Position numbers and translations under genes: made by a program. Below, piece after piece: positions 3,533 through 55,567 of a stretch of DNA of 64,000 nt. This stretch comes from a virus (Duplodnaviria; Heunggongvirae; Uroviricota; Caudoviricetes). Location of the stretch: the IMG/VR virus record IMGVR_UViG_647533160_000003. The stretch is one strand, 5' to 3'. How positions within the stretch are numbered: position 1 is the first letter of the stretch; the number at the start of each line of letters is the position of its first letter. The notes under the pieces were generated by a model. That model saw only the letters and a list, made by a program, of their open reading frames with translations. It had not been told where the DNA came from and searched no databases.

Positions 3533-4729
3533 TTGAACTGGTTAGTGAGGCTAATAATGGATTTGTTCTCAACCAAAATAGCAAAAAACAAGCTGCACGA
3601 ATCTTTTAAACAGATTTATCAAGATAATACATATGCTCCAGTAAGAGAAGTGATACAGTCGTGGGGGCGTGGGTTACTGGAGCGTAGCGGTGAGCAGACT
3701 AAATTCGTTAAAGAGTTTCAGACAACCTTCAATTCCGCCTTATGGGAATTGTATCTGAACGAAATGTTTATTCGTCTCGATTATTCTGTCGACTACACAA
3801 AAGACAGTCCCGATTTCTGTGTTACTACACCGTCAGGCTACCAGTTTAACGTCGAAGCTGTGATATCAGATCGGCCACATAATCCACCTGCAGGTGCTCT
3901 TTTTAGCGAATCAAAATTCAAACATCAATCAACGCTAAAATTAATCGGAAAAATCAAAGACAAACATGATCTTTTTACAGGAGTTAATGGCAAAAAATTC
4001 CCGTACTCTACGATGTCTCATGTAGTTAATAAGCCGTTTGTTCTGGCGCTTGCACCCTTTGACTCCGATTTATCATTGTCTCAAAATAACACAATCATCA
4101 ATCGAGTGTTGTTTGGCATTGAGGAACCTACCACCAGAAATTTGGTGACTGGCAGCCAAACTAAAGTTACCTCAATCAAAAAGAATGAAGACGTTGAAAT
4201 TCCATTAGGTATATTTACTAACGACTCATATAAAGAAATAAGTGCGGTTATTTTCTCCACCACCGGCACTTTTGGAAAAGCCGTGGTTCAAAGCGGTATC
4301 GGTAGATATGTAAGGTCAACACGATATCGAGCCATTGATGTGAATGATTTCATCGCCAATGAAGGGATGAAAAACGAGGGAAAGCACACACAAAGGATAG
4401 GACCTGATCATTTCATCACTACATATCGGCATTTTTTAAATAACGAAGTCACTGGTGCGGATATTGTAGTTTGCCATTCCACTGCTCATGAAGAGACGCA
4501 CTTTGACGGCCTTCATATTTACTACAATCCTTTTGCGACAGTGCCACTGGACAGAAATATTTTCTTCCCCCCAGAGATAACTCATAATTTTTACGATATG
4601 GAAAAAGAACAGTCTGTTCAGAATCATCCTGATGGAGCGCTGGTATCTAGACAGGTTTTTGAACCAACTAGAGCACATTTTAGGTATATCATGAAACATT
4701 GGTTTCCAGGCTTTCTAAAAGATGTTTAA
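3533..4729 (+). CDS. hypothetical protein (accessory, lower GC)
   Basis: 398-aa ORF; no confident motif; likely start at Met 3557. Confidence 0.5.
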   Translation: MNWLVRLIMDLFSTKIAKNKLHESFKQIYQDNTYAPVREVIQSWGRGLLERSGEQTKFVKEFQTTFNSALWELYLNEMFIRLDYSVDYTKDSPDFCVTTPSGYQFNVEAVISDRPHNPPAGALFSESKFKHQSTLKLIGKIKDKHDLFTGVNGKKFPYSTMSHVVNKPFVLALAPFDSDLSLSQNNTIINRVLFGIEEPTTRNLVTGSQTKVTSIKKNEDVEIPLGIFTNDSYKEISAVIFSTTGTFGKAVVQSGIGRYVRSTRYRAIDVNDFIANEGMKNEGKHTQRIGPDHFITTYRHFLNNEVTGADIVVCHSTAHEETHFDGLHIYYNPFATVPLDRNIFFPPEITHNFYDMEKEQSVQNHPDGALVSRQVFEPTRAHFRYIMKHWFPGFLKDV

Positions 4730-4917
4730 GCATCCTGCTGGTTGAATTTGGAACCTGCTTCTGTATATAAATACTAAGTTACTTATTATTATTTATACGG
4801 AAGCAGGTCTTTTTCTATGCCAACTTCCCAGACACATTCCCTTCCGTTTCCACTTCCAAAAACTGCCACCAGTCGCTATCATCCGCTCATTGCAATAAGT
4901 AAGTAACTACCTATCAG

Positions 4918-5667
4918 GTGAGCCACATGAGCCAAATCTTTTTTGATACCATTGACAACGACCAGTACGACTTCATGACAGAGTGGAATACCGCTGTTAT
5001 GGACAAGTGGGTCGCTGAAAACATTGGTTTGTCGCGCTGCAAAGACGAGGCTGAACTCTTCGAGACGAAGTGGTTTGATTACCGCGATATGCATCCTCTC
5101 ATGGCCACCTGTCTGTTTACGGAGGCGTACAAACGTCAGTACTCAAATATCATGCTGACGCACGGTCGCGAACACTTTGAAACAGCTCCGTTCACCACCG
5201 GGTTAAAACGCCTGCCTTATCAGGAGTTGTCGACTGCCAATAAAACGTCGCTATGGAAAGCACGCCAGTTTGCTGATCGCTATTGCTGTTCATACGACTA
5301 CTTTATCTCCACGGTTCTTTCCGCAGCTGCACGGCGTCTGTGGGACAAGTTGCCGCGCCCACAGCATTTATGGCAGCCAGAACTGATTGAGATATTCGAA
5401 GAGAAATTATCCAGACGCGCAACAACCCGTCTGGATGACTCTCTGGTTAGCTTTAAGCATATGGGAGACATGCAGTTCAACCCGATTCAGGAAAGCTATT
5501 TTGAGTGGATTCTGGAGCGTTTGCGCATCATCCCCCGCAGCAAGCGCATACGCGCAATTTTCTCTGCTATCTGGCTAATGGAAATCGTTCCAGAGCGCCT
5601 TATTTCCGCCCACTTTCCAGAAGAACTGGAAGAAGCACGGCGGTTTATTGATCCCCTATCTAATTAA
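4918..5667 (+). CDS. hypothetical protein
   Basis: 249-aa ORF immediately upstream of helicase gene. Confidence 0.5.
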   Translation: MSHMSQIFFDTIDNDQYDFMTEWNTAVMDKWVAENIGLSRCKDEAELFETKWFDYRDMHPLMATCLFTEAYKRQYSNIMLTHGREHFETAPFTTGLKRLPYQELSTANKTSLWKARQFADRYCCSYDYFISTVLSAAARRLWDKLPRPQHLWQPELIEIFEEKLSRRATTRLDDSLVSFKHMGDMQFNPIQESYFEWILERLRIIPRSKRIRAIFSAIWLMEIVPERLISAHFPEELEEARRFIDPLSN

Positions 5668-14288: not shown

Positions 14289-14363
14289 GATGGTGTAGCT
14301 CAGCGGTAGAGCAGTTGGCTGTTAACCAACTGGTCGGTGGTTCGAATCCACCCACCATCGCCA
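14289..14363 (+). tRNA. tRNA-Asn (anticodon GTT)
   Basis: Cloverleaf by eye: acceptor GATGGTG/CACCATC, T-arm GGTGG-TTCGAAT-CCACC, anticodon loop CTGTTAA, 3' CCA. Confidence 0.8.
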
Positions 14364-14368
14364 ATTTA

Positions 14369-14455
14369 GGGGAGTTAGTCCGTAGAGGTAGCGGGACAGA
14401 CTGTAAATCTACTGTCATTGCGACTCGGGTGGTTCGACTCCATCACTCCCCACCA
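14369..14455 (+). tRNA. tRNA-Tyr-like (anticodon GTA), class II, atypical anticodon stem
   Basis: Acceptor GGGGAGT/ACTCCCC, loop CTGTAAA, long variable arm, CCA; outer two anticodon-stem pairs are A-C mismatches. Confidence 0.55.
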
Positions 14456-14459
14456 AATT

Positions 14460-14535
14460 GCCGGTTTAGCTCAGTTGGTAGAGCGCCTGCCTTGTAAGCA
14501 GGATGTCAGCGGTTCGAGTCCGTTAACCGGCACCA
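14460..14535 (+). tRNA. tRNA-Thr (anticodon TGT)
   Basis: Acceptor GCCGGTT/AACCGGC, D-arm GCTC-AGTTGGTAG-AGC, anticodon stem CCTGC/GCAGG with loop CTTGTAA, CCA. Confidence 0.85.
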
Positions 14536-15024: not shown

Positions 15025-16236
15025 TCAAAAAAGTTTTATAAATTCATAATTCTGGTCAATTAAGGATTCAATACACACCATGCAAAAATCTACATCGTTA
15101 AAATCAGGTGTGTAATATTCATCCTCATAACATTCATTTAGACCTTCAATCAATTTTTCTTTAAAAACTCCCCACGTTTCAATATGAACCATTTCCATAT
15201 AAGGCGCATGTGTATGTACTTGCAATACATCCCAGGTGTCTATAACCTCGATCCGCGGCTTGCAATTAATTTTTTCTAAATATGCCCTCCCAGAATTGTA
15301 AATTTTCGACATTGATGCCCCAAAACCTGATGGTTGGTAATGAGTGTAAATGTCATAAATTTTTTGTCCTATTCTAGGGAGTTGAGAAGCATTGGATATT
15401 TGTGGCGAATGAAAGTATCGCTCTATGGAAGAAAACGCAGAAACATTAACTAGAGTAATCGTATATGGTGCTAAAGTTCTCTCGTTCAAATTTCTACATA
15501 AAATAGCAAACCCATGGCTATTAGTCTTTTCACCGTCTGAGGACATTTTTGCCATGCTGGCTTTAATAACATTCAATTTCGAATGTAAACGAGAAGTGGA
15601 AGTCGGTTGATTATACATTTCATCATCATACAAACATATATGAAACCCGCCAAGATGACGAAATGAGAACTTGAGTGCTTCTTCCGCAATAACTAATTTA
15701 TTAATATCTAAAGGAGTAAGTGATACGTTACCTTGTAAATCATAGCAAGGTTCTAAACATAGAAAGTTTTTCTTCTGCCACACGATCATATTAAAAATAA
15801 AGTGTCTAACCAAAGGTGGCCAGTCAGGTGATATAAGTACATTGGTAATATCTCCATCAGACAAGTATGACAAGTAACTTTTTAGTTCCGCAGCATATGC
15901 CACTAGCTCAGTTCCAGCTTCCCTTGTTGGTGTTGAAAAATTTTTTAACTCAATAAGAACTAAGGATTCATTCTCTGTTGAATAAGCAACGACATCAGGT
16001 CTTAATATCTCAGATTTTGTTGCTGAGATATTCTCATCATCTGTCATTAAATGTAACAATGTTATGTTCTTTAAACAAAACTGATAACTCTCCTTAATTT
16101 TTTTCTCTTCGGGTCTTTTCGGATTAAATTCATTTAATTTATCAATATTGATGATTGAATTATATAATCCATCTTGATCAGATAATTTGTCAATTATCCA
16201 ATTTTGCATTTCCTTTTCGCTTAAAAATATTGACAC
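15025..16236 (-). CDS. PD-(D/E)xK nuclease-like protein, second gene of candidate two-gene defense operon
   Basis: 403 aa; RPDVVAYSTENESLVLIELK is a PD-x14-ExK match; GTG start preceded by GGGAG RBS; very AT-rich. Confidence 0.6.
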   Translation of the reverse strand: MSIFLSEKEMQNWIIDKLSDQDGLYNSIINIDKLNEFNPKRPEEKKIKESYQFCLKNITLLHLMTDDENISATKSEILRPDVVAYSTENESLVLIELKNFSTPTREAGTELVAYAAELKSYLSYLSDGDITNVLISPDWPPLVRHFIFNMIVWQKKNFLCLEPCYDLQGNVSLTPLDINKLVIAEEALKFSFRHLGGFHICLYDDEMYNQPTSTSRLHSKLNVIKASMAKMSSDGEKTNSHGFAILCRNLNERTLAPYTITLVNVSAFSSIERYFHSPQISNASQLPRIGQKIYDIYTHYQPSGFGASMSKIYNSGRAYLEKINCKPRIEVIDTWDVLQVHTHAPYMEMVHIETWGVFKEKLIEGLNECYEDEYYTPDFNDVDFCMVCIESLIDQNYEFIKLF

Positions 16237-16262
16237 TAATTAGGCTCCCGTTAAACCAAAAA

Positions 16263-17084
16263 TTAAAAATCTTGCTTTACTTTATCCATGGTCAGAATTT
16301 TGCTAATAATTGAAGATTCAAATCCATCTAAACCTGAGAGAAAGTTAATTAGCTTTTGGATATGTTGTTCTTTAGGTATAAGTATATATTTTATATCATT
16401 GAACTCAAAATCAATGCCAAACTTTGAAAATTTTGAGCTAATTTTTGCTTTGTCATCAGAAGTGATAACACGCTCCAAACTCAGACTAGGCCATAAATCA
16501 CCAATAAAAGGAGCTGGCACATAACGCCACTCTTTCTCGTCTGCATATATATAATTCTCTATTGTTTTATTATCTTTTCGCTCTAGCTTGCCTCTGTAAT
16601 TTTTCATATAACGCAGTAAATTATATAGATCAGAATATTCTGCTTTCAATTTCTCAAACTCTATTCTGTTTTTGGTATCTAAATTTCCTCTAGCCTTCCA
16701 AAGCGGCACCAACTTATTTTTAATAAGTCGAATTCTGGCATTGTATTTAGAAAATATTTCACTACTCTTATTCATATATAGAACTGGGTGTAGACCTTTC
16801 TTTTCCGCCCAAGACTTAGTTAGCCCAAGACCGAATTCTCCATATTTTCCGCTATGATCTCTGATTTGTGATAGTTTTATGTCACAAAACGATACCATTG
16901 GTACTGCAAACCTCCTGCGTCCCCCGACTCCTCTTATTTCCTCGCGAGCAAGAAATGGTTTAAAATATTTCTCAGCCAATATGCTATAGAAAGCATCTTC
17001 GTTTTTTGTAAAATGAAACAACGTGGTTGGATGAAGACTATAAACAGATTCAACATTCGCATCAGGATTTTCAAGGATAGTCAT
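16263..17084 (-). CDS. hypothetical protein (LFHFT N-terminal motif), first gene of candidate two-gene defense operon
   Basis: About 273 aa from Met 17084 (AGGTG RBS 5 nt upstream; ORF open to 17129); 26-nt gap to downstream gene; AT-rich. Confidence 0.55.
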   Translation of the reverse strand: MTILENPDANVESVYSLHPTTLFHFTKNEDAFYSILAEKYFKPFLAREEIRGVGGRRRFAVPMVSFCDIKLSQIRDHSGKYGEFGLGLTKSWAEKKGLHPVLYMNKSSEIFSKYNARIRLIKNKLVPLWKARGNLDTKNRIEFEKLKAEYSDLYNLLRYMKNYRGKLERKDNKTIENYIYADEKEWRYVPAPFIGDLWPSLSLERVITSDDKAKISSKFSKFGIDFEFNDIKYILIPKEQHIQKLINFLSGLDGFESSIISKILTMDKVKQDF

Positions 17085-17373
17085 TTTACACCTTGTGGAA
17101 AGCCAGTTTAGTTCTGTAAATAGTATCACACGACAGGCGGCTATTCTTCTATCAATAAATGATAGGTAAGCACTTACTTTTTACGCACGTTAACTGTATA
17201 GTTCTTTCGGATACTCACTTGAAAGGACTCAATATGGGAAATAAATGTAAACATGCGCGTCGCGCATCTCGTCAGGTGCAGAAGTCAAATCCATACATTC
17301 ACGAGCACTACCACCTCAGCTCTTTCACTAACCGCTACACGTTCCCCAGCGAAGCGCATAACGAGGCAAAGCA

Positions 17374-17619
17374 ATGACGATCACTATCTATGGACGAGAT
17401 AACTGCTCATACTGCAAACGTGCGGTCGAGCTGGCGAAGCAGCTTCACGGTCACGGTTTTGGCGATTACGAATACATCGATATTGTGTCTGCTGGGATAG
17501 ACAAAGAGAAATTGAGCGCCCTGGTTGGCAAGCCGGTGGAGACCATACCGCAGGTGTTCGTAAATGGCGAATCTATCGGTGGCTATACGGAATTCGCCGC
17601 TCTGGTGAGTACATTATAA
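17374..17619 (+). CDS. glutaredoxin (NrdH/NrdC-like)
   Basis: 81 aa with CSYC redox motif near N-terminus and TIPQVFVNG motif. Confidence 0.75.
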   Translation: MTITIYGRDNCSYCKRAVELAKQLHGHGFGDYEYIDIVSAGIDKEKLSALVGKPVETIPQVFVNGESIGGYTEFAALVSTL

Positions 17620-17624
17620 TTAAG

Positions 17625-17645
17625 AGCCGCTTAGGCGGCTTTTTA
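17625..17645 (+). terminator. rho-independent terminator
   Basis: AGCCGC-TTAG-GCGGCT hairpin followed by TTTTT. Confidence 0.6.
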
Positions 17646-17786
17646 CATGAAAGTGTGCGCTCAAATCAACTATATCTATGAAAAGGACAGTTATAAATAT
17701 TAAAAATATCTAAAATCCCTTCCGATATATGAATTATCAGATTAAAATTTCACACAATGTGCTTTTAATGAGTTATTATTTCACCT

Positions 17787-18411
17787 NNNNNNNNNNNNNN
17801 NNNNNNNNNNNNNNNNNNNNNNNNNNNNNNNNNNNNNNNNNNNNNNNNNNNNNNNNNNNNNNNNNNNNNNNNNNNNNNNNNNNNNNNNNNNNNNNNNNNN
17901 NNNNNNNNNNNNNNNNNNNNNNNNNNNNNNNNNNNNNNNNNNNNNNNNNNNNNNNNNNNNNNNNNNNNNNNNNNNNNNNNNNNNNNNNNNNNNNNNNNNN
18001 NNNNNNNNNNNNNNNNNNNNNNNNNNNNNNNNNNNNNNNNNNNNNNNNNNNNNNNNNNNNNNNNNNNNNNNNNNNNNNNNNNNNNNNNNNNNNNNNNNNN
18101 NNNNNNNNNNNNNNNNNNNNNNNNNNNNNNNNNNNNNNNNNNNNNNNNNNNNNNNNNNNNNNNNNNNNNNNNNNNNNNNNNNNNNNNNNNNNNNNNNNNN
18201 NNNNNNNNNNNNNNNNNNNNNNNNNNNNNNNNNNNNNNNNNNNNNNNNNNNNNNNNNNNNNNNNNNNNNNNNNNNNNNNNNNNNNNNNNNNNNNNNNNNN
18301 NNNNNNNNNNNNNNNNNNNNNNNNNNNNNNNNNNNNNNNNNNNNNNNNNNNNNNNNNNNNNNNNNNNNNNNNNNNNNNNNNNNNNNNNNNNNNNNNNNNN
18401 NNNNNNNNNNN
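17787..18411. other. assembly gap (625 N)
   Basis: Uninterrupted run of n. Confidence 0.99.
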
Positions 18412-19241
18412 GAAATGTTTCTACCACGGTGATAATCCATTCCATAAACCGAATCAATTCCTGAGTTCACTATCTTCATCTGAATTTCAAAAAAATCATT
18501 ATTTAAATCAAAGTAAACAATAGGGACCTCATATCTTCTGCTAGAAAAATCCATTGGTGATAGATAGTTAAGACCATTTGCACTGACCTTCACTTGAATT
18601 CCAGCCTGTATACCTGAATTCGACGTTGGAGCAGAAATAAGTAATTGAGAAAGTGGGTCTCGTTTGTCTATCCACACAATGTCCCGTTGAGTATCATTAG
18701 GTTGATATTTAGTAGGATAGTTAATTTTCGTATAGTTGAGTCCAGTCCCAACAGCTTTATAATTAGACAAACTATCTGTGAAAGGGGTATATCTCTTTGC
18801 TAATAATGCCCAGTTTTCATTTTGTTTCGCGTTTTTTTCACATTCTTCAACAATGAGTGCTTCCGCAATTTTACCTAATATTCTCATAGTTGTTTTATGG
18901 GGATCTAGTTCGATAATGATGTTTGACTTGATCACTCCTTCTTCATTAATACCAACAAGACCTAACTCTTTATCCATGAGTTCAAATAAATTTTCCCCAT
19001 GCTCAATTGCTAACAAAGCTGAAGGTCGTGATAATAATGAAGAGTTATTCCAATCTCCGAGGGAGATATCCAGACCTAAATCAATACCTTTAGTCGTCAC
19101 TACTAGCTGAGGTTTGGGAGGCGTAGCCCCTAATAACTCAGATAGCGTGTTGACTTCCGGTGTCTCTTTTATCATTTTTCTTATCCTGTTGCAGCGATCG
19201 CATGACAATACTATAAAACCAGCCATTTTCAAGTAAATCAA
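18412..19241 (-). CDS. hypothetical protein, N-terminal 276 codons only (interrupted by gap)
   Basis: Minus-strand ORF starting at 19241 and running into the N-run; AT-rich; no motif recognised. Confidence 0.5.
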
Positions 19242-19449
19242 TTACCTTTTAGGTGATGAAGATAAAAGTGAAGCCAACCCCTCCGTTCGAAAAGATAGAT
19301 TCAAAAAAATCGCCCCCCAATGATTCCATACCTACTATGTATGGAATCATTACTGAAAATGAGTTACTTTTACTCTTGATCCTATAAGAATCTATGCCTA
19401 ATATACTGTTTACTTATACAGTGCATCGGCGTAACTCGGTGATTGTCAT

Positions 19450-20553
19450 ATGAAAAATAGCTTTGACAGAGCACGCGCTGCGGAGAACACCTCAAAAGAG
19501 GCGATTGAGTATCTCGAAAGAGCATCTCAAATGCAGGCCGTTATGATCTCCCAGGTCAGCAATGACATGAGATTCTCGGACGCATTCATGTTATTCACTC
19601 GCTTATCTCTGCTGATAACAAGACGTCGGCCAGAGATCGCTGTTCATTGTATTTTGATACATGTTTTGCCGCACATTGCCGATGTAAAAGTAAGTGATAT
19701 TAATAGGTTCATGGTGAACCAACTGGTCAACCCACTAATACTGGATGGCAAAATTGTTATGGGTCGCCGCGTTTTCTCTCTGATGAAGCAGTTCCTCAGC
19801 TGGTGCGCCTTCCAGGGGATGATCGACGTGTCACCGTTAAACGATATGTCACTTAACAAAGTTGCCGGTGGCGCAAAGCCCACACCTCGCGAGCGGAAGC
19901 TGACCGACGCAGAGGTATGGGTGTTCTGGAATATATGGGACTACTTCAATGTGTGTGCTGGTACAAAATGGGCGGCCAGGCTATGTCTTGTATCCGCAAG
20001 ACGACCTGACGAAGTACTGCGGGCTAAAAAAAGTGAGTTCAATCTTAAGCGTGGGGTTTGGAATCAAGGCAAGAGGAACAAATCTGCCCGTGAGCATTCT
20101 CTGCCTTTAAGCTCATTAATGCGCACATGTATTGAAGAGTTGTTCGAATATGGTAAAGACAGCCAGTGGCTCGTGCCTTCGAATAAAAAAATCGGGAAAG
20201 ACCTTCCTATGTCTAAAGTGGCAATAGCCCAGGCATTACGTCGTATTCTGGAACGACCAGAACTGATGGAGCTTGAGCCATTTACACCCCGAGATTTGCG
20301 CCGTACTGCGCGTAGTTACTTCCCAGCATTAGGCATAAGCCAGGAGGTATCACGTAAAATCATGAACCACAGTCTTGAGGGGATAGATCGGGTCTACGAC
20401 CGGCACGATTATATGGACGAGATGCGAGACGCCTTAGAAAGTTTCTCGACGTACATCGCATCAATCGTAGAGCAACCGGATTTAGACGAAATTGACCACA
20501 AATTTAAGGGAGATCGTCTATCAACAGAGCTTATTCGTGTAAATTTTTCATAG
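19450..20553 (+). CDS. tyrosine recombinase/integrase, apparently lacking N-terminal arm-binding domain
   Basis: Catalytic-domain residues in order: R (FNVCAGTKWAARLCLVSARRPDE), H-x-x-R (RDLRRTARSY), NHS, C-terminal DRVYDRHDY; 367 aa. Confidence 0.7.
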   Translation: MKNSFDRARAAENTSKEAIEYLERASQMQAVMISQVSNDMRFSDAFMLFTRLSLLITRRRPEIAVHCILIHVLPHIADVKVSDINRFMVNQLVNPLILDGKIVMGRRVFSLMKQFLSWCAFQGMIDVSPLNDMSLNKVAGGAKPTPRERKLTDAEVWVFWNIWDYFNVCAGTKWAARLCLVSARRPDEVLRAKKSEFNLKRGVWNQGKRNKSAREHSLPLSSLMRTCIEELFEYGKDSQWLVPSNKKIGKDLPMSKVAIAQALRRILERPELMELEPFTPRDLRRTARSYFPALGISQEVSRKIMNHSLEGIDRVYDRHDYMDEMRDALESFSTYIASIVEQPDLDEIDHKFKGDRLSTELIRVNFS

Positions 20554-53974: not shown

Positions 53975-54135
53975 TTTGTTCTGGCGTCTGTAATTAGCCT
54001 GCTTCTGTATATATAAATAACTACATATTAATTATTAATATACGGAAGCAGGCTGTTTTGTATCAGAGACTCTAGACCTGAACATCACTACAGAATCCAC
54101 TAGACCCCCTTCCCAGACGCTTTAAAATCGATTTT

Positions 54136-54390
54136 ATGAACCACTTTAAGGAAACTAACATGTCATACCCGACTAATGTCGTTGCGCTCGTAGAGAGCGA
54201 TTTTCTGGCCCAGGCTCGTGAAATGATGAAAGATCGCGAGCAGGCTTTCAACTTGTACGAATGGGCAATTAAGTGCTTGCATCTTGGGGAGCATCGCGAA
54301 CTTGTTGAACAGCTTTTAGGTGAGTTGATCAACGAGGTGTTTGCCTTGAATGTTCAACTACATGGTCGAGAAAATAATCAATCGCAATGA
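54136..54390 (+). CDS. hypothetical protein
   Basis: 84-aa ORF. Confidence 0.4.
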   Translation: MNHFKETNMSYPTNVVALVESDFLAQAREMMKDREQAFNLYEWAIKCLHLGEHRELVEQLLGELINEVFALNVQLHGRENNQSQ

Positions 54391-54973
54391 TAGATAAGTA
54401 CAAACTATTCATAAGATGAATTGTAAGTGCTAAGATCTGATAGTTTCCAGTCGTAGACTGGAGACTCGACCTGATGGGTGGGGGTAAGCGTCACTGGCGT
54501 CAGGTTTAAAAAAGCTCACTACCAGCGTAGAACTGGTGCCGTTTAGGTGTCGGGGAAGGGGGAACCAAAGTGAGCAGAGACAAGGGTCACTTTATGATTG
54601 TCGAGTCTGGGGTGTTTCGAGAGGTTGAATCCAGTACTCCCCTTCATAAAGTGTGGGAAGATCTCGGTTCTGGGGTGCTGTCATCCATAACTTCCCAAGT
54701 CTAAGCTGGCAGTAGACTTAGACCATAGCTTTTCAGGTTATGAAACGACCAGGTTGGTGAGGAATTTTATACTCACCTCCCTGGGAGAGTATTACCTGAA
54801 AAGACAACCTCTCACTTCGTTCGAGGTGAACTTCACTCACTTCGTTCGTTCAGTTCAGGTTTATAAAAACCTGTTCTGGGAAGTAATTTGTTTATTTTAA
54901 TAATTATTAACACGCACGCGTGTGCGCACGCGCGAGGAAAAAAATCGGCGCGGCGCTTGATTCAGGAGTTTAT

Positions 54974-55567
54974 ATGACGACGAAGACACCAGCCCGATCG
55001 CAAGCAAAAACTCGCAAAAAAGACAAAAACAAAAATTCTCCCCGCACCAATCCCACAACGCCTGTCGTAGAGTTCAATCCCCAGCTTAAAACCGTGAAAA
55101 TCTTCAGTGATGGCTCTTGCCTTAAAAATCCGGGTGGCCCGGGCGGTTACGGTATAGTTCTCCAGTATCGTGGTGAGGAACGCGAGTTCTCAGATGGTTT
55201 TCATAGCACCACCAATAACCGCATGGAGATGATGGGGGCACTTATCGGGCTGGAGCGTTTGAAATATCCATGCAACGTTATTTTGCACTCTGATAGCCAG
55301 TATCTGAAAAACGGCATGACACAGTGGATGAAATGGTGGAAACGCAATGGATGGATGACTTCTGACAAAAAACCGGTAAAGAATGTTGATTTGTGGAAGC
55401 GTCTGGATGAGGCCGCAAGTCGACATAATGTTCGCTGGAAGTGGGTTAAAGGTCACGCCGGGCATCGTGAAAATGAAATATGTGATCGACTCGCGAAGAT
55501 CGCAGCTTTTTCCGCAGCAGATATGCCTCACAAGAAAGATATTGGTTTTATTTATAACAAGCAGTAA
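54974..55567 (+). CDS. rnhA: ribonuclease HI
   Basis: [56 protein letters not shown] match E. coli RnhA; start at ATG 54974 after AGGAG. Confidence 0.85.

Follow-up and report, generated by a model that had tools for sequence, protein, structure and literature searches.

The closest analogues, by context and size and with no homology implied, of the element considered here are the ROOL and GOLLD RNAs. The element lies in a 64,000-nt stretch of viral DNA (Caudoviricetes; IMG/VR record IMGVR_UViG_647533160_000003), the whole of which is called the window, and it occupies the interval 54391–54973, between the small gene ORF76 and the RNase HI gene rnhA. It is proposed to be a gene for a structured non-coding RNA (ncRNA). 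Like ROOL and GOLLD, this RNA is several hundred nucleotides long, multi-helix and supported by covariation, belongs to a temperate phage element, appears to form its own transcription unit and has no known function. Unlike them, it does not match their Rfam models, lies about 40 kb from tRNA genes and is found in phage-plasmids of Enterobacteriaceae, whereas ROOL and GOLLD are known from Lactobacillales or rumen phages. The RNA II/RNA I/Rop system of ColE1 also offers likenesses: in both, the transcript is structured, measures about 500 nt, carries stem-loops at its 5′ end and is made in the plasmid state. As that system works with RNase H and Rop, so this RNA stands beside an RNase HI gene and a gene for a small helical protein. 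However, unlike RNA II, it lacks an antisense promoter and an origin signature and does not depend on an adjacent rnhA, and the neighbouring protein gave no Rop fold match, small helical folds being hard to tell apart. The immunity RNAs of phage-plasmids (c4 of P1/P7, CB of N15, CI of P4) are likewise non-coding and made in lysogeny, but they are cut out of longer transcripts as antisense RNAs of about 80 nt and control an antirepressor; the present RNA has about 450 nt, its own promoter, no adjacent ant gene in the window and no match to the Rfam C4 model. CsrB/RsmZ and 6S RNA share with it the proposed mode of action, the titration of a protein by repeated motifs displayed on hairpins, although it has neither the array of GGA loops nor the 6S-like rod with a central bubble, nor an Rfam match. 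Finally, protein-coding "morons" resemble it in being autonomous promoter-plus-gene units between phage genes, expressed in the prophage and absent from distant relatives; here, in contrast, the product is an RNA.

An earlier note on this DNA, made from the letters alone, had described the interval as a candidate structured ncRNA upstream of rnhA. The candidate is supported by a transcript, by covariation and by the conservation of structure, and all the elements described in that note were found in place or a few bases off. The position upstream of rnhA is real but incidental, since the RNA has its own promoter and is retained in lineages without rnhA. At Rfam 15 gathering scores, only three tRNAs (14289–14532) were detected in the whole window and nothing at this locus, and a permissive scan of 54000–55200, with E allowed up to 10, gave a best E of 0.09, with eukaryotic and viral families far under their thresholds. 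The 4227 families compared included ROOL, GOLLD, OLE, HEARO, raiA, tmRNA, RNase P, group I and II introns, C4, RNAI, 6S and CsrB. ARAGORN found no tRNA or tmRNA gene in 54300–55050. The covariance scan that the note had suggested has thus been run with no match to a known family, and its dismissal of tmRNA and group I intron was correct. No ncRNA of SSU5 or pHCM2 elements, and no description of this RNA, turned up in the literature searched. A stand-alone structured ncRNA gene is very likely, and the results support a new, unannotated RNA gene of about 450 nt, outside the known RNA families and expressed in dormant phage-plasmids of the SSU5/pHCM2 type, to which the window belongs by its sequence.

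Transcript, sequence constraint and fold

The conserved core of the RNA, delimited by identity, covariation and RNA-seq, covers about 445 nt on the + strand (54443–54887) and comprises the hairpins P1–P10 and a 3′ tail. It is preceded by a predicted sigma-70 promoter on the same strand. In the window, the −35 hexamer is TTCATA (54408–54413). Each of the 60 distinct upstream sequences has its −35 at a distance of exactly 17 nt from the −10, the spacer varying in sequence and keeping its length. The −10 is of the extended type, with TG (54428–54429), c and TAAGAT (54431–54436), and the pattern TG..TA...T is invariant in 21 representatives, although the DNA between ORF76 and the RNA otherwise varies. 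Depending on the lineage, the −35 takes the form TTCATA, TTTAAA, TTTACC or similar, with an extended −10 of TGnTAnnAT; the Klebsiella clade has TTTACG, a 17-nt spacer and TAGAAT. The predicted start near 54443 leads straight into P1. Two further observations concern this promoter. A GATC (Dam) site at 54434–54437 overlaps the −10 in the window's subclade only. A hairpin or palindrome at 54391–54410 (about 2408–2425 in the relative L073) shares bases with the stop codon of ORF76 and borders directly on the −35. Several lineages have it as a perfect 14-bp GGTAAGTACTTACC, and the divergent clade described below has AAATAGC/GCTATTT; it could be a terminator or an operator.

Published RNA-seq data, one of the checks that the earlier note had named, show a discrete transcript. 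In the study of strain LF82 and phage Cyrano, CYRAN_81 is listed as a "moron" expressed 12-fold over the local background (PMC9928086). CYRAN_81 corresponds to 54570–54704 of the window, where Cyrano is 97% identical. The S1 Table of that study gives log2(fpkm+5) values (fpkm, fragments per kilobase per million) for two replicates per condition, and those of CYRAN_81 were 6.8 and 6.9 in BLB (LB stationary phase), 9.3 and 9.0 in B1, 6.9 and 6.9 in B6, 9.0 and 8.2 in MB1 (macrophages, 1 h) and 10.35 and 10.3 in MB6 (macrophages, 6 h). Across the same five conditions, the ORF76 homologue reached 3.1–5.8 and rnhA 2.6–5.0 (PMC9928086). The RNA interval thus exceeds both neighbours 11- to 40-fold in all five conditions, and rnhA stays at background in lysogens (S1 Table, PMC9928086). 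Because the interval is high and both flanks are low, transcription is taken to begin after ORF76 and mostly not to reach rnhA. Two features expected of an ncRNA gene in general, an own conserved promoter and a discrete transcript in RNA-seq, were therefore found. The annotation of CYRAN_81 as a protein in Cyrano (OV696614) is, by the sequence comparisons, a misannotation of this RNA. In the same table, CYRAN_43 (OV696614 40268–40822), a "hypothetical protein" of 555 nt that adjoins integrase and repressor in Cyrano, reaches log2 values of 11.5–14.9, about 700 times the local background; it may not be a protein gene, and it was not located in the window.

The 3′ end may be placed either in the spacer behind the core or at the hairpin that follows, which gives a transcript of about 445–515 nt. 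The spacer (54887–54909, + strand) is U-rich and A+T-rich, variable and not alignable between subclades. The hairpin (54924–54956, + strand) is GC-rich, has a loop of seven A, is followed by UUGAUU and stands just before the rnhA ribosome-binding site. A GC hairpin was placed here in the minimum free energy (MFE) folds of all five main-clade representatives examined, and it may be a weak terminator or attenuator. In Cronobacter sp. JZ38, further hairpins follow the RNA, then a canonical + strand intrinsic terminator and an unrelated gene.

The sequence of the core is constrained. From viral contigs, plasmids and metagenomes, 91 distinct versions of the RNA were gathered, which form a main clade (85–100% identical) and a divergent clade (about 60% identity) consisting of Cronobacter sp. 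JZ38 and six viral or metagenomic contigs (n = 7). A pattern scan of metagenomes for a third, deeper clade gave only these two. Within genome pairs whose ORF76 and rnhA DNA is 70–79% identical, the segment 54465–54942 is 84–91% identical, while the 74 nt directly upstream of 54465 reach only about 41–56%. These comparisons show, at the level of sequence, purifying selection on a non-coding core. As reported earlier, 54391–54973 holds no open reading frame (ORF) of 60 aa or more, the longest having 44 aa (54570–54704, +), 48 aa (54754–54900, +) and 53 aa (54897–55058, −), and the GC content is above that of ordinary spacers (0.44–0.54 over 54450–54800, against 0.31–0.37 in the flanking spacers). 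The 44-aa ORF, the equivalent of CYRAN_81, is not a gene by these comparisons. It is intact in 57 of the 91 sequences and in none of the seven divergent ones, which lack both its start and its stop, and it is frameshifted in 4 of 21 representatives (L034, L055, L068, L069). Its variable sites fall on the three codon positions as 24/20/19, with no codon periodicity and no third-position bias. Moreover, of the 13 ORFs of at least 10 aa that the window's RNA contains, every one is broken in all the divergent-clade sequences, and indels of 1, 2 and 7 nt occur. A conserved reading frame is thus absent from the RNA region, as expected of an ncRNA gene.

The region 54391–54973 folds with an MFE of −209 kcal/mol (z = −6.7), and similarly on both strands; therefore, energy alone cannot name the strand. 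Comparative folding, also proposed in the earlier note, revealed strong covariation and a structure conserved in relatives. For the 21 representatives, RNAalifold returned −95.5 kcal/mol with 99 pairs, 27 of them compensatory, on the + strand, and −66.6 kcal/mol with 84 pairs, 18 compensatory, on the − strand. A curated model of 95 pairs in 14 helices was scored on all 91 sequences (8621 cells). Pairing was kept in 98.4% of the cells and 27 of the 95 pairs had two-sided changes, whereas shifted registers gave 28–50% pairing with at most 9 two-sided pairs, and none of 500 shuffles matched. Several pairs switch inside the main clade, namely 29–66 (A-U 62 / G-C 29), 30–65 (C-G 58 / U-A 24), 80–145 (U-A 39 / C-G 35 / U-G 17) and 273–295 (C-G 70 / U-A 17), so the covariation does not come from one deep split alone. 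Within the helices, G-U cells number 841 and A-C cells only 12, and the opposite-strand version is only 88.8% paired. An RNA from the minus strand was rejected on its weaker consensus fold and on A-C mismatches where the + strand has G-U. The comparisons thus show a conserved structured RNA which, on this sequence evidence, is read from the + strand.

All helices are given on the + strand. P1 (54443–54465), the 5′-terminal hairpin at the predicted +1, is kept as a hairpin with a different sequence in each subclade (GUUUCCAGUC/GACUGGAGAC, GCUGGCAGA/UCUGCCAGC, GCUUCCGGA/UCCGGAAGC and GUCAUUU/GAAUGGC). P2 (54469–54505; ACCUGAUG-GGUG / CACU-CGUCAGGU) contains the invariant GAUGGGUGG and has 12 pairs, 100% paired, four of them with two-sided changes; its changes within the main clade are A-U 62 / G-C 29, C-G 58 / U-A 24 and A-U 69 / G-C 21. 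After an A-rich linker 3′ of P2, the P3 domain (54514–54575) consists of a closing helix GCUCAC/GUGAGC, in which three of six pairs change on both sides, two small hairpins and the invariant G-rich GGGGAAGGGGGAACCAAAG. P4 (54588–54653; CACUUUAUGA/UCAUAAAGUG) is a long hairpin, 99.7% paired with two compensatory pairs, and encloses the inner hairpin P4a (54617–54628) with the loop GAGG. P5 (54654–54697; UGGGAAG/CUUCCCA), with its inner P5a, is 100% paired, three of its seven pairs being compensatory, and its internal loop GAUCUYGRUUCUGGG is invariant. The invariant GAUC of this loop (54656–54661) lies within the palindrome AGAUCU, and the phage Dam gene is about 1 kb upstream. P6 (54699–54723) has 10 pairs, 100% paired, five of them compensatory, and P7i (54724–54742; CAUAGCU/GGUUAUG) is 99.7% paired with one compensatory pair. 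A long stem, 54729–54741/54791–54803, excludes P7i and is a possible alternative conformer; it is 90% paired in the alignment and shows no covariation.

The 3′ half of the core holds the elements first noticed in the sequence. The stem-loop GGTGAG (54756–54761)/CTCACC (54772–54777) is present as P7c, where relatives covary (G-C to A-U and U-A to C-G), and it belongs to the hairpin P7b/P7c (54749–54784), with 11 pairs, 98.9% paired, two compensatory. P8 (54808–54826), CCUC-UCACUUCGUUC-GAGG, is invariant except for the middle base of its loop; here 22 nt, ACAACCTCTCACTnCGTTCGAGG, are invariant in both clades, n being any of the four bases. P9 (54827–54857; UGAACU/AGUUCA) carries a second UCACUUCGUUC in its loop as the second repeat copy, and its six pairs are 100% paired, three of them compensatory; in the divergent clade it reads GAAACC-UCACAUUCGUUC-GGUUUC. 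The tandem duplication reported earlier is therefore real as an exact 13-mer, CTCACTTCGTTCG, at 54811–54823 and 54836–54848, but Tandem Repeats Finder returned no array. P10 (54858–54871; GGUUU/AAACC) has two compensatory pairs, is only 79% paired and varies between subclades. The conserved 3′ tail UUCUGGGAAGUAA (54874–54886) holds the last copy of UUCUGGG, and its TCTGGG does not vary among the 21 representatives; beyond about 54887 the sequence is no longer conserved. The most constrained parts of the RNA are the two UCACUnCGUUC loops (P8 and P9), the two to three copies of UUCUGGG and the runs GAUGGGUGG and GGGGAAGGGGG. They are repeated single-stranded or apical elements, and no single long antisense stretch is among them.

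Proposed function and alternative explanations

According to the reading that we prefer, the conserved sigma-70 promoter would start + strand transcription near 54443, and the RNA, which extends to about 54887, would consist of some ten successive hairpins or hairpin domains (P1–P10). The unit would be a non-coding moron, inserted as an autonomous whole between ORF76 and the next gene of replication or nucleotide metabolism, and its RNA is made in the plasmid (lysogenic) state while the neighbours are silent. The repeated displayed motifs (the P8 and P9 loops, UUCUGGG and the G-rich runs) would bind a protein in trans. A role as scaffold or decoy is suggested because these repeated displayed motifs are the most constrained parts; independence from rnhA is shown by the persistence of the RNA in 13 of 91 contexts without that gene. 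To this combined reading, a self-contained + strand structured ncRNA gene that acts as a protein-binding scaffold or decoy, we assign a probability of roughly 0.6; the trans-acting protein-binding mode, taken by itself, is put forward tentatively.

The P8 hairpin is not confined to this RNA. The exact 19-mer CCTCTCACTnCGTTCGAGG was searched in a genome collection (one genome per species) and in viral contigs, with at least 120 matches in each (listed as loci L084–L203 and L358–L409, the last 52 being viral-contig loci), while the chance expectation for the genome collection, estimated under uniform base composition, is about 17. About 25 of the genome matches represent a protein-coding family of Bacilli and not an RNA motif, and they were discounted. 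The remaining genome matches listed are intergenic, often in several copies per metagenome-assembled genome (Bacteroidota, Acidobacteria), and some are archaeal and stand beside tRNA genes. The module can be described as a stem with an 11-nt loop, UC-N-C-UNC-G-N′-UC, in which N pairs with N′ and the middle base is free. Its phage copies extend the lower stem by unrelated complementary sequence (UAAC..GUUA, CCC..GGG, ACAA..UUGU and longer stems), and in two phage cases an intrinsic terminator follows directly after the hairpin, which is oriented as it is here. Two tandem copies occur in one family of phages with genomes of about 45 kb, the second with C-G where P8 has A-U. The generic pattern (4-bp stem plus TC.CT.CG.TC, positions 3 and 9 paired) occurs 238 times in 1.5 Mb of these loci and not at all in shuffles. 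T-loop and anticodon-loop registers for P8 were considered by eye and rejected, the outer stems covarying only in the CCUC/GAGG register. Rfam assigned no family at 28 motif-bearing loci, and the motif sequence was not found in the literature searched. Because the module is reused on unrelated stems, two of them followed directly by terminators, its distribution points to a possible widely conserved partner. That this large, ornate lysogen RNA is new and works through an undescribed apical module of this form, recruiting or titrating a widely conserved cellular factor, is a doubtful proposition at present, and we consider it rather unlikely.

Several points weigh against the preferred reading. 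No partner protein or target was identified, and in ORF76, the sole constant neighbour, no fold of an RNA-binding type could be recognised, while its expression in lysogens is very low. The short repeated motifs could equally be seeds for base pairing. The strandedness of the RNA-seq libraries is unstated in the paper and the 5′ and 3′ ends are unmapped; the strand is assigned here because of the orientation of the promoter and the excess of G-U over A-C in the helices. The terminator scan found no strong intrinsic terminator after the core in the window, the hairpin at 54924–54956 failing the U-run rule. Finally, the compensatory changes come mostly from one deep split between the two clades, and the independent events are fewer than the cell counts suggest.

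Among the alternatives, a regulator that acts in trans by base pairing, such as a long small RNA (sRNA) or an sRNA sponge with UUCUGGG, a G-rich run or the P8/P9 loops as seeds and phage-plasmid or host targets, is improbable, though less so than the others. Expression in the lysogen resembles that of known prophage sRNAs and anti-sRNAs, the short single-stranded motifs are invariant, and candidate pairing sites lie just upstream of ORF76, where UCUGGGAAG of the RNA (54876–54884) is complementary to CUUCCCAGA (about 54110–54118) and GGGGAAGGGGG to 54105–54114. This complementarity is not accompanied by covariation, however: main-clade relatives have CCCCTCTTCAGA or CCCCTCTCCAGA at the DNA site with an unchanged RNA motif, and the complementary DNA falls within a predicted promoter spacer, which may be untranscribed. 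Pairing of the G-rich run or UCUGGG with the CCCAGA repeats upstream of ORF76 was likewise rejected for lack of covariation. In addition, a conserved structure of about 450 nt far exceeds what seed pairing needs. Slightly less probable is a 5′ leader or attenuator that acts in cis on rnhA or another downstream gene by regulated termination at the GC hairpin. The RNA is on the same strand and directly upstream of rnhA with no strong terminator between them, the hairpin precedes the ribosome-binding site in all main-clade representatives folded, and the RNA-seq signal falls 11- to 40-fold from the element to rnhA. The downstream gene is not constant, as would be expected of a leader, since 13 of 91 contexts lack a downstream rnhA and the genes that follow differ. 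The core also ends about 85 nt before the ribosome-binding site, the intervening sequence being variable, or missing from the divergent clade; in JZ38 a complete intrinsic terminator precedes the next, unrelated gene, and relatives of the L294 type show, by eye, an apparent separate promoter (TTGATC, TATATGAT) before the downstream gene.

A primer for a replication origin, of the ColE1 RNA II or T4 R-loop type, that hybridises at the A+T-rich and alternating region and is processed by RNase HI, would account for a length of about 500 nt, the 5′ stem-loops and G-rich runs, and the A+T-rich segment, alternating tract and RNase HI gene directly downstream; expression in the plasmid state would suit a plasmid origin. 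We nevertheless regard it as quite unlikely. The cumulative GC skew climbs steadily across the region with no inflection, no minus-strand promoter-like site was found in 54450–54900 from which an antisense RNA I could arise, and no Rfam match of the RNAI/RNAII type was obtained. The RNA persists in the 13 of 91 contexts without rnhA, and no part is less conserved than the A+T-rich and alternating segment. Two related plasmids are placed in rep_cluster_763 and rep_cluster_973 by PLSDB/MOB-suite, so that a typed replicon should lie elsewhere on them, and ORF76 gave no Rop-like fold match, although small helical folds are hard to tell apart. An element acting at the DNA level, whether a packaging or recombination site, a set of single-strand hairpins or a Z-DNA or cruciform regulatory element, is very unlikely. 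In its favour, the folding z is equal on both strands, the alternating tract is significant and the deletion endpoints of rnhA-less variants fall at it. Moreover, the P8 loop of the opposite strand would read as tandem G-A mismatches plus a GNA triloop, a combination that makes a very stable DNA mini-hairpin. The asymmetry of 841 G-U against 12 A-C cells, however, is impossible from a constraint on double-stranded DNA, the conserved promoter and discrete transcript speak for an RNA, and the tract itself is variable. The least probable of all is a micro-protein, either the 44-aa CYRAN_81, which is annotated as a coding sequence in OV696614 and was counted as a transcribed moron, or another micro-ORF; the frameshifts, the start and stop missing from the divergent clade, the absence of third-position bias and the loss of all 13 ORFs from that clade argue against it.

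Genomic setting and neighbouring features

The alternating purine-pyrimidine tract that the earlier note had reported is present as 25 nt of CA/CG alternation, ACACGCACGCGTGTGCGCACGCGCG, at 54910–54934. It is real, but it starts about 25 nt past the conserved end and lies outside the conserved RNA to which it had been assigned. No alternation in the window is longer, the next having 16 nt; over 200 shuffles, the longest run had a mean of 16.2 nt and never went beyond 21. A long, unbroken CG/CA-rich alternation of this kind makes Z-DNA or cruciform potential plausible, judged from the letters. In relatives, the tract measures 6–29 nt and is nearly absent from the divergent clade, and it behaves like a microsatellite. 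Its 3′ part probably belongs to the GC hairpin at 54924–54956. The rnhA-less variants of the main clade (L278, L291, L292) diverge in or just after the tract and the A-run (54910–54960); therefore, the tract marks a recombination or module boundary.

The 583-bp query 54391–54973 matched 685–687 PLSDB plasmids of about 105–115 kb each, from Klebsiella, Escherichia, Enterobacter, Salmonella (including plasmids of the pHCM2 group), Citrobacter, Cronobacter and Shigella, as well as 12 phage records, among them Salmonella phage SSU5 and Escherichia phage Cyrano. The core is present in 232 of 5426 complete E. coli genomes, nearly all copies being plasmid-borne, and RefSeq has no annotation beneath it. 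The locus belongs to a long array of nucleotide-metabolism and replication genes, in the local order nrdAB, thyA, dfrA51, 3′-5′ exonuclease, Dam, ORF76, the gap and rnhA, all co-directional. Among the 91 distinct contexts, ORF76 is the upstream neighbour in 91 and Dam is upstream in 90, whereas rnhA follows in 78 and is missing in 13. Plasmids of Moellerella and Pectobacterium have ORF76 homologues, with no recognisable RNA homologue after them, and keep exonuclease or hypothetical genes, Dam and ORF76. Because these distant relatives retain the flanking Dam and ORF76 genes and have no RNA, the RNA looks like an insertion specific to the Enterobacteriaceae lineage.

ORF76 (54160–54390, +; phrog_5343), directly upstream of the RNA gene, encodes a small three-helix protein. 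Its start is probably the ATG at 54160 rather than 54136, because the PHROG match begins at residue 9 of the 84-aa ORF and the SSU5 homologue has 231 nt. The AlphaFold model consists of three helices (pLDDT 80). Compared with the PDB by Foldseek, it gave no significant fold match and no recognisable RNA-binding fold; the best match had E = 6.7, and small helical folds are hard to tell apart. Upstream of ORF76 (54072–54120), C(C/T)AGA(C/A) motifs about 20 nt apart and a conserved CCCCTTCCCAGA box lie in the predicted ORF76 promoter. They are kept in both clades and may form an operator array. The box is complementary to UCUGGGAAG of the RNA, and the two show no covariation.

On the other side, rnhA (54974–55567, +; Pfam RNase_H, E = 1e-44) encodes an RNase HI of 197 aa and is a neighbour outside the element. 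The reading frame can be followed upstream to a GTG at 54920, and translation probably starts with the ATG at 54974. SSU5 annotates its RNase H (SSU5_090, 4363–5127 of locus L001) as 254 aa, with a start about 150 nt upstream of the conserved ATG, inside P8–P10. This is probably a misannotated start site, because the N-terminal extension is not open in the window. The first 40 or so codons of rnhA (54974–55100) encode a basic, low-complexity extension, and their DNA is skewed to C over G (GC skew −0.41); such a C-rich start would suit Rho utilisation on untranslated read-through RNA. Elsewhere in the window, the three tRNA genes at 14289–14532 are clustered, the middle one (14369–14452, 84 nt) scoring only 32.9 bits and having an insertion in its variable region. 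The block 16001–20000 has a GC content of 0.32, against about 0.45 in the rest of the window, which suggests a foreign insertion.

To our knowledge, large structured RNAs of unknown function are rare, and almost all of those known come from poorly tractable organisms. The RNA described here occurs in tractable hosts, namely E. coli, Klebsiella, Salmonella, Enterobacter, Citrobacter, Cronobacter and Shigella. It has been overlooked or mislabelled in annotation, since RefSeq is blank at this place and one study counted it as a protein moron. Some members of the phage-plasmid family carry resistance genes, as exemplified by dfrA51, which is encoded on a plasmid identical to the window. With its clear promoter and well-supported fold, and with an expression in lysogens that is strong and peaks in macrophages, the RNA is accessible to experiment, and its P8 module could mark a broader system of RNA-protein recognition.

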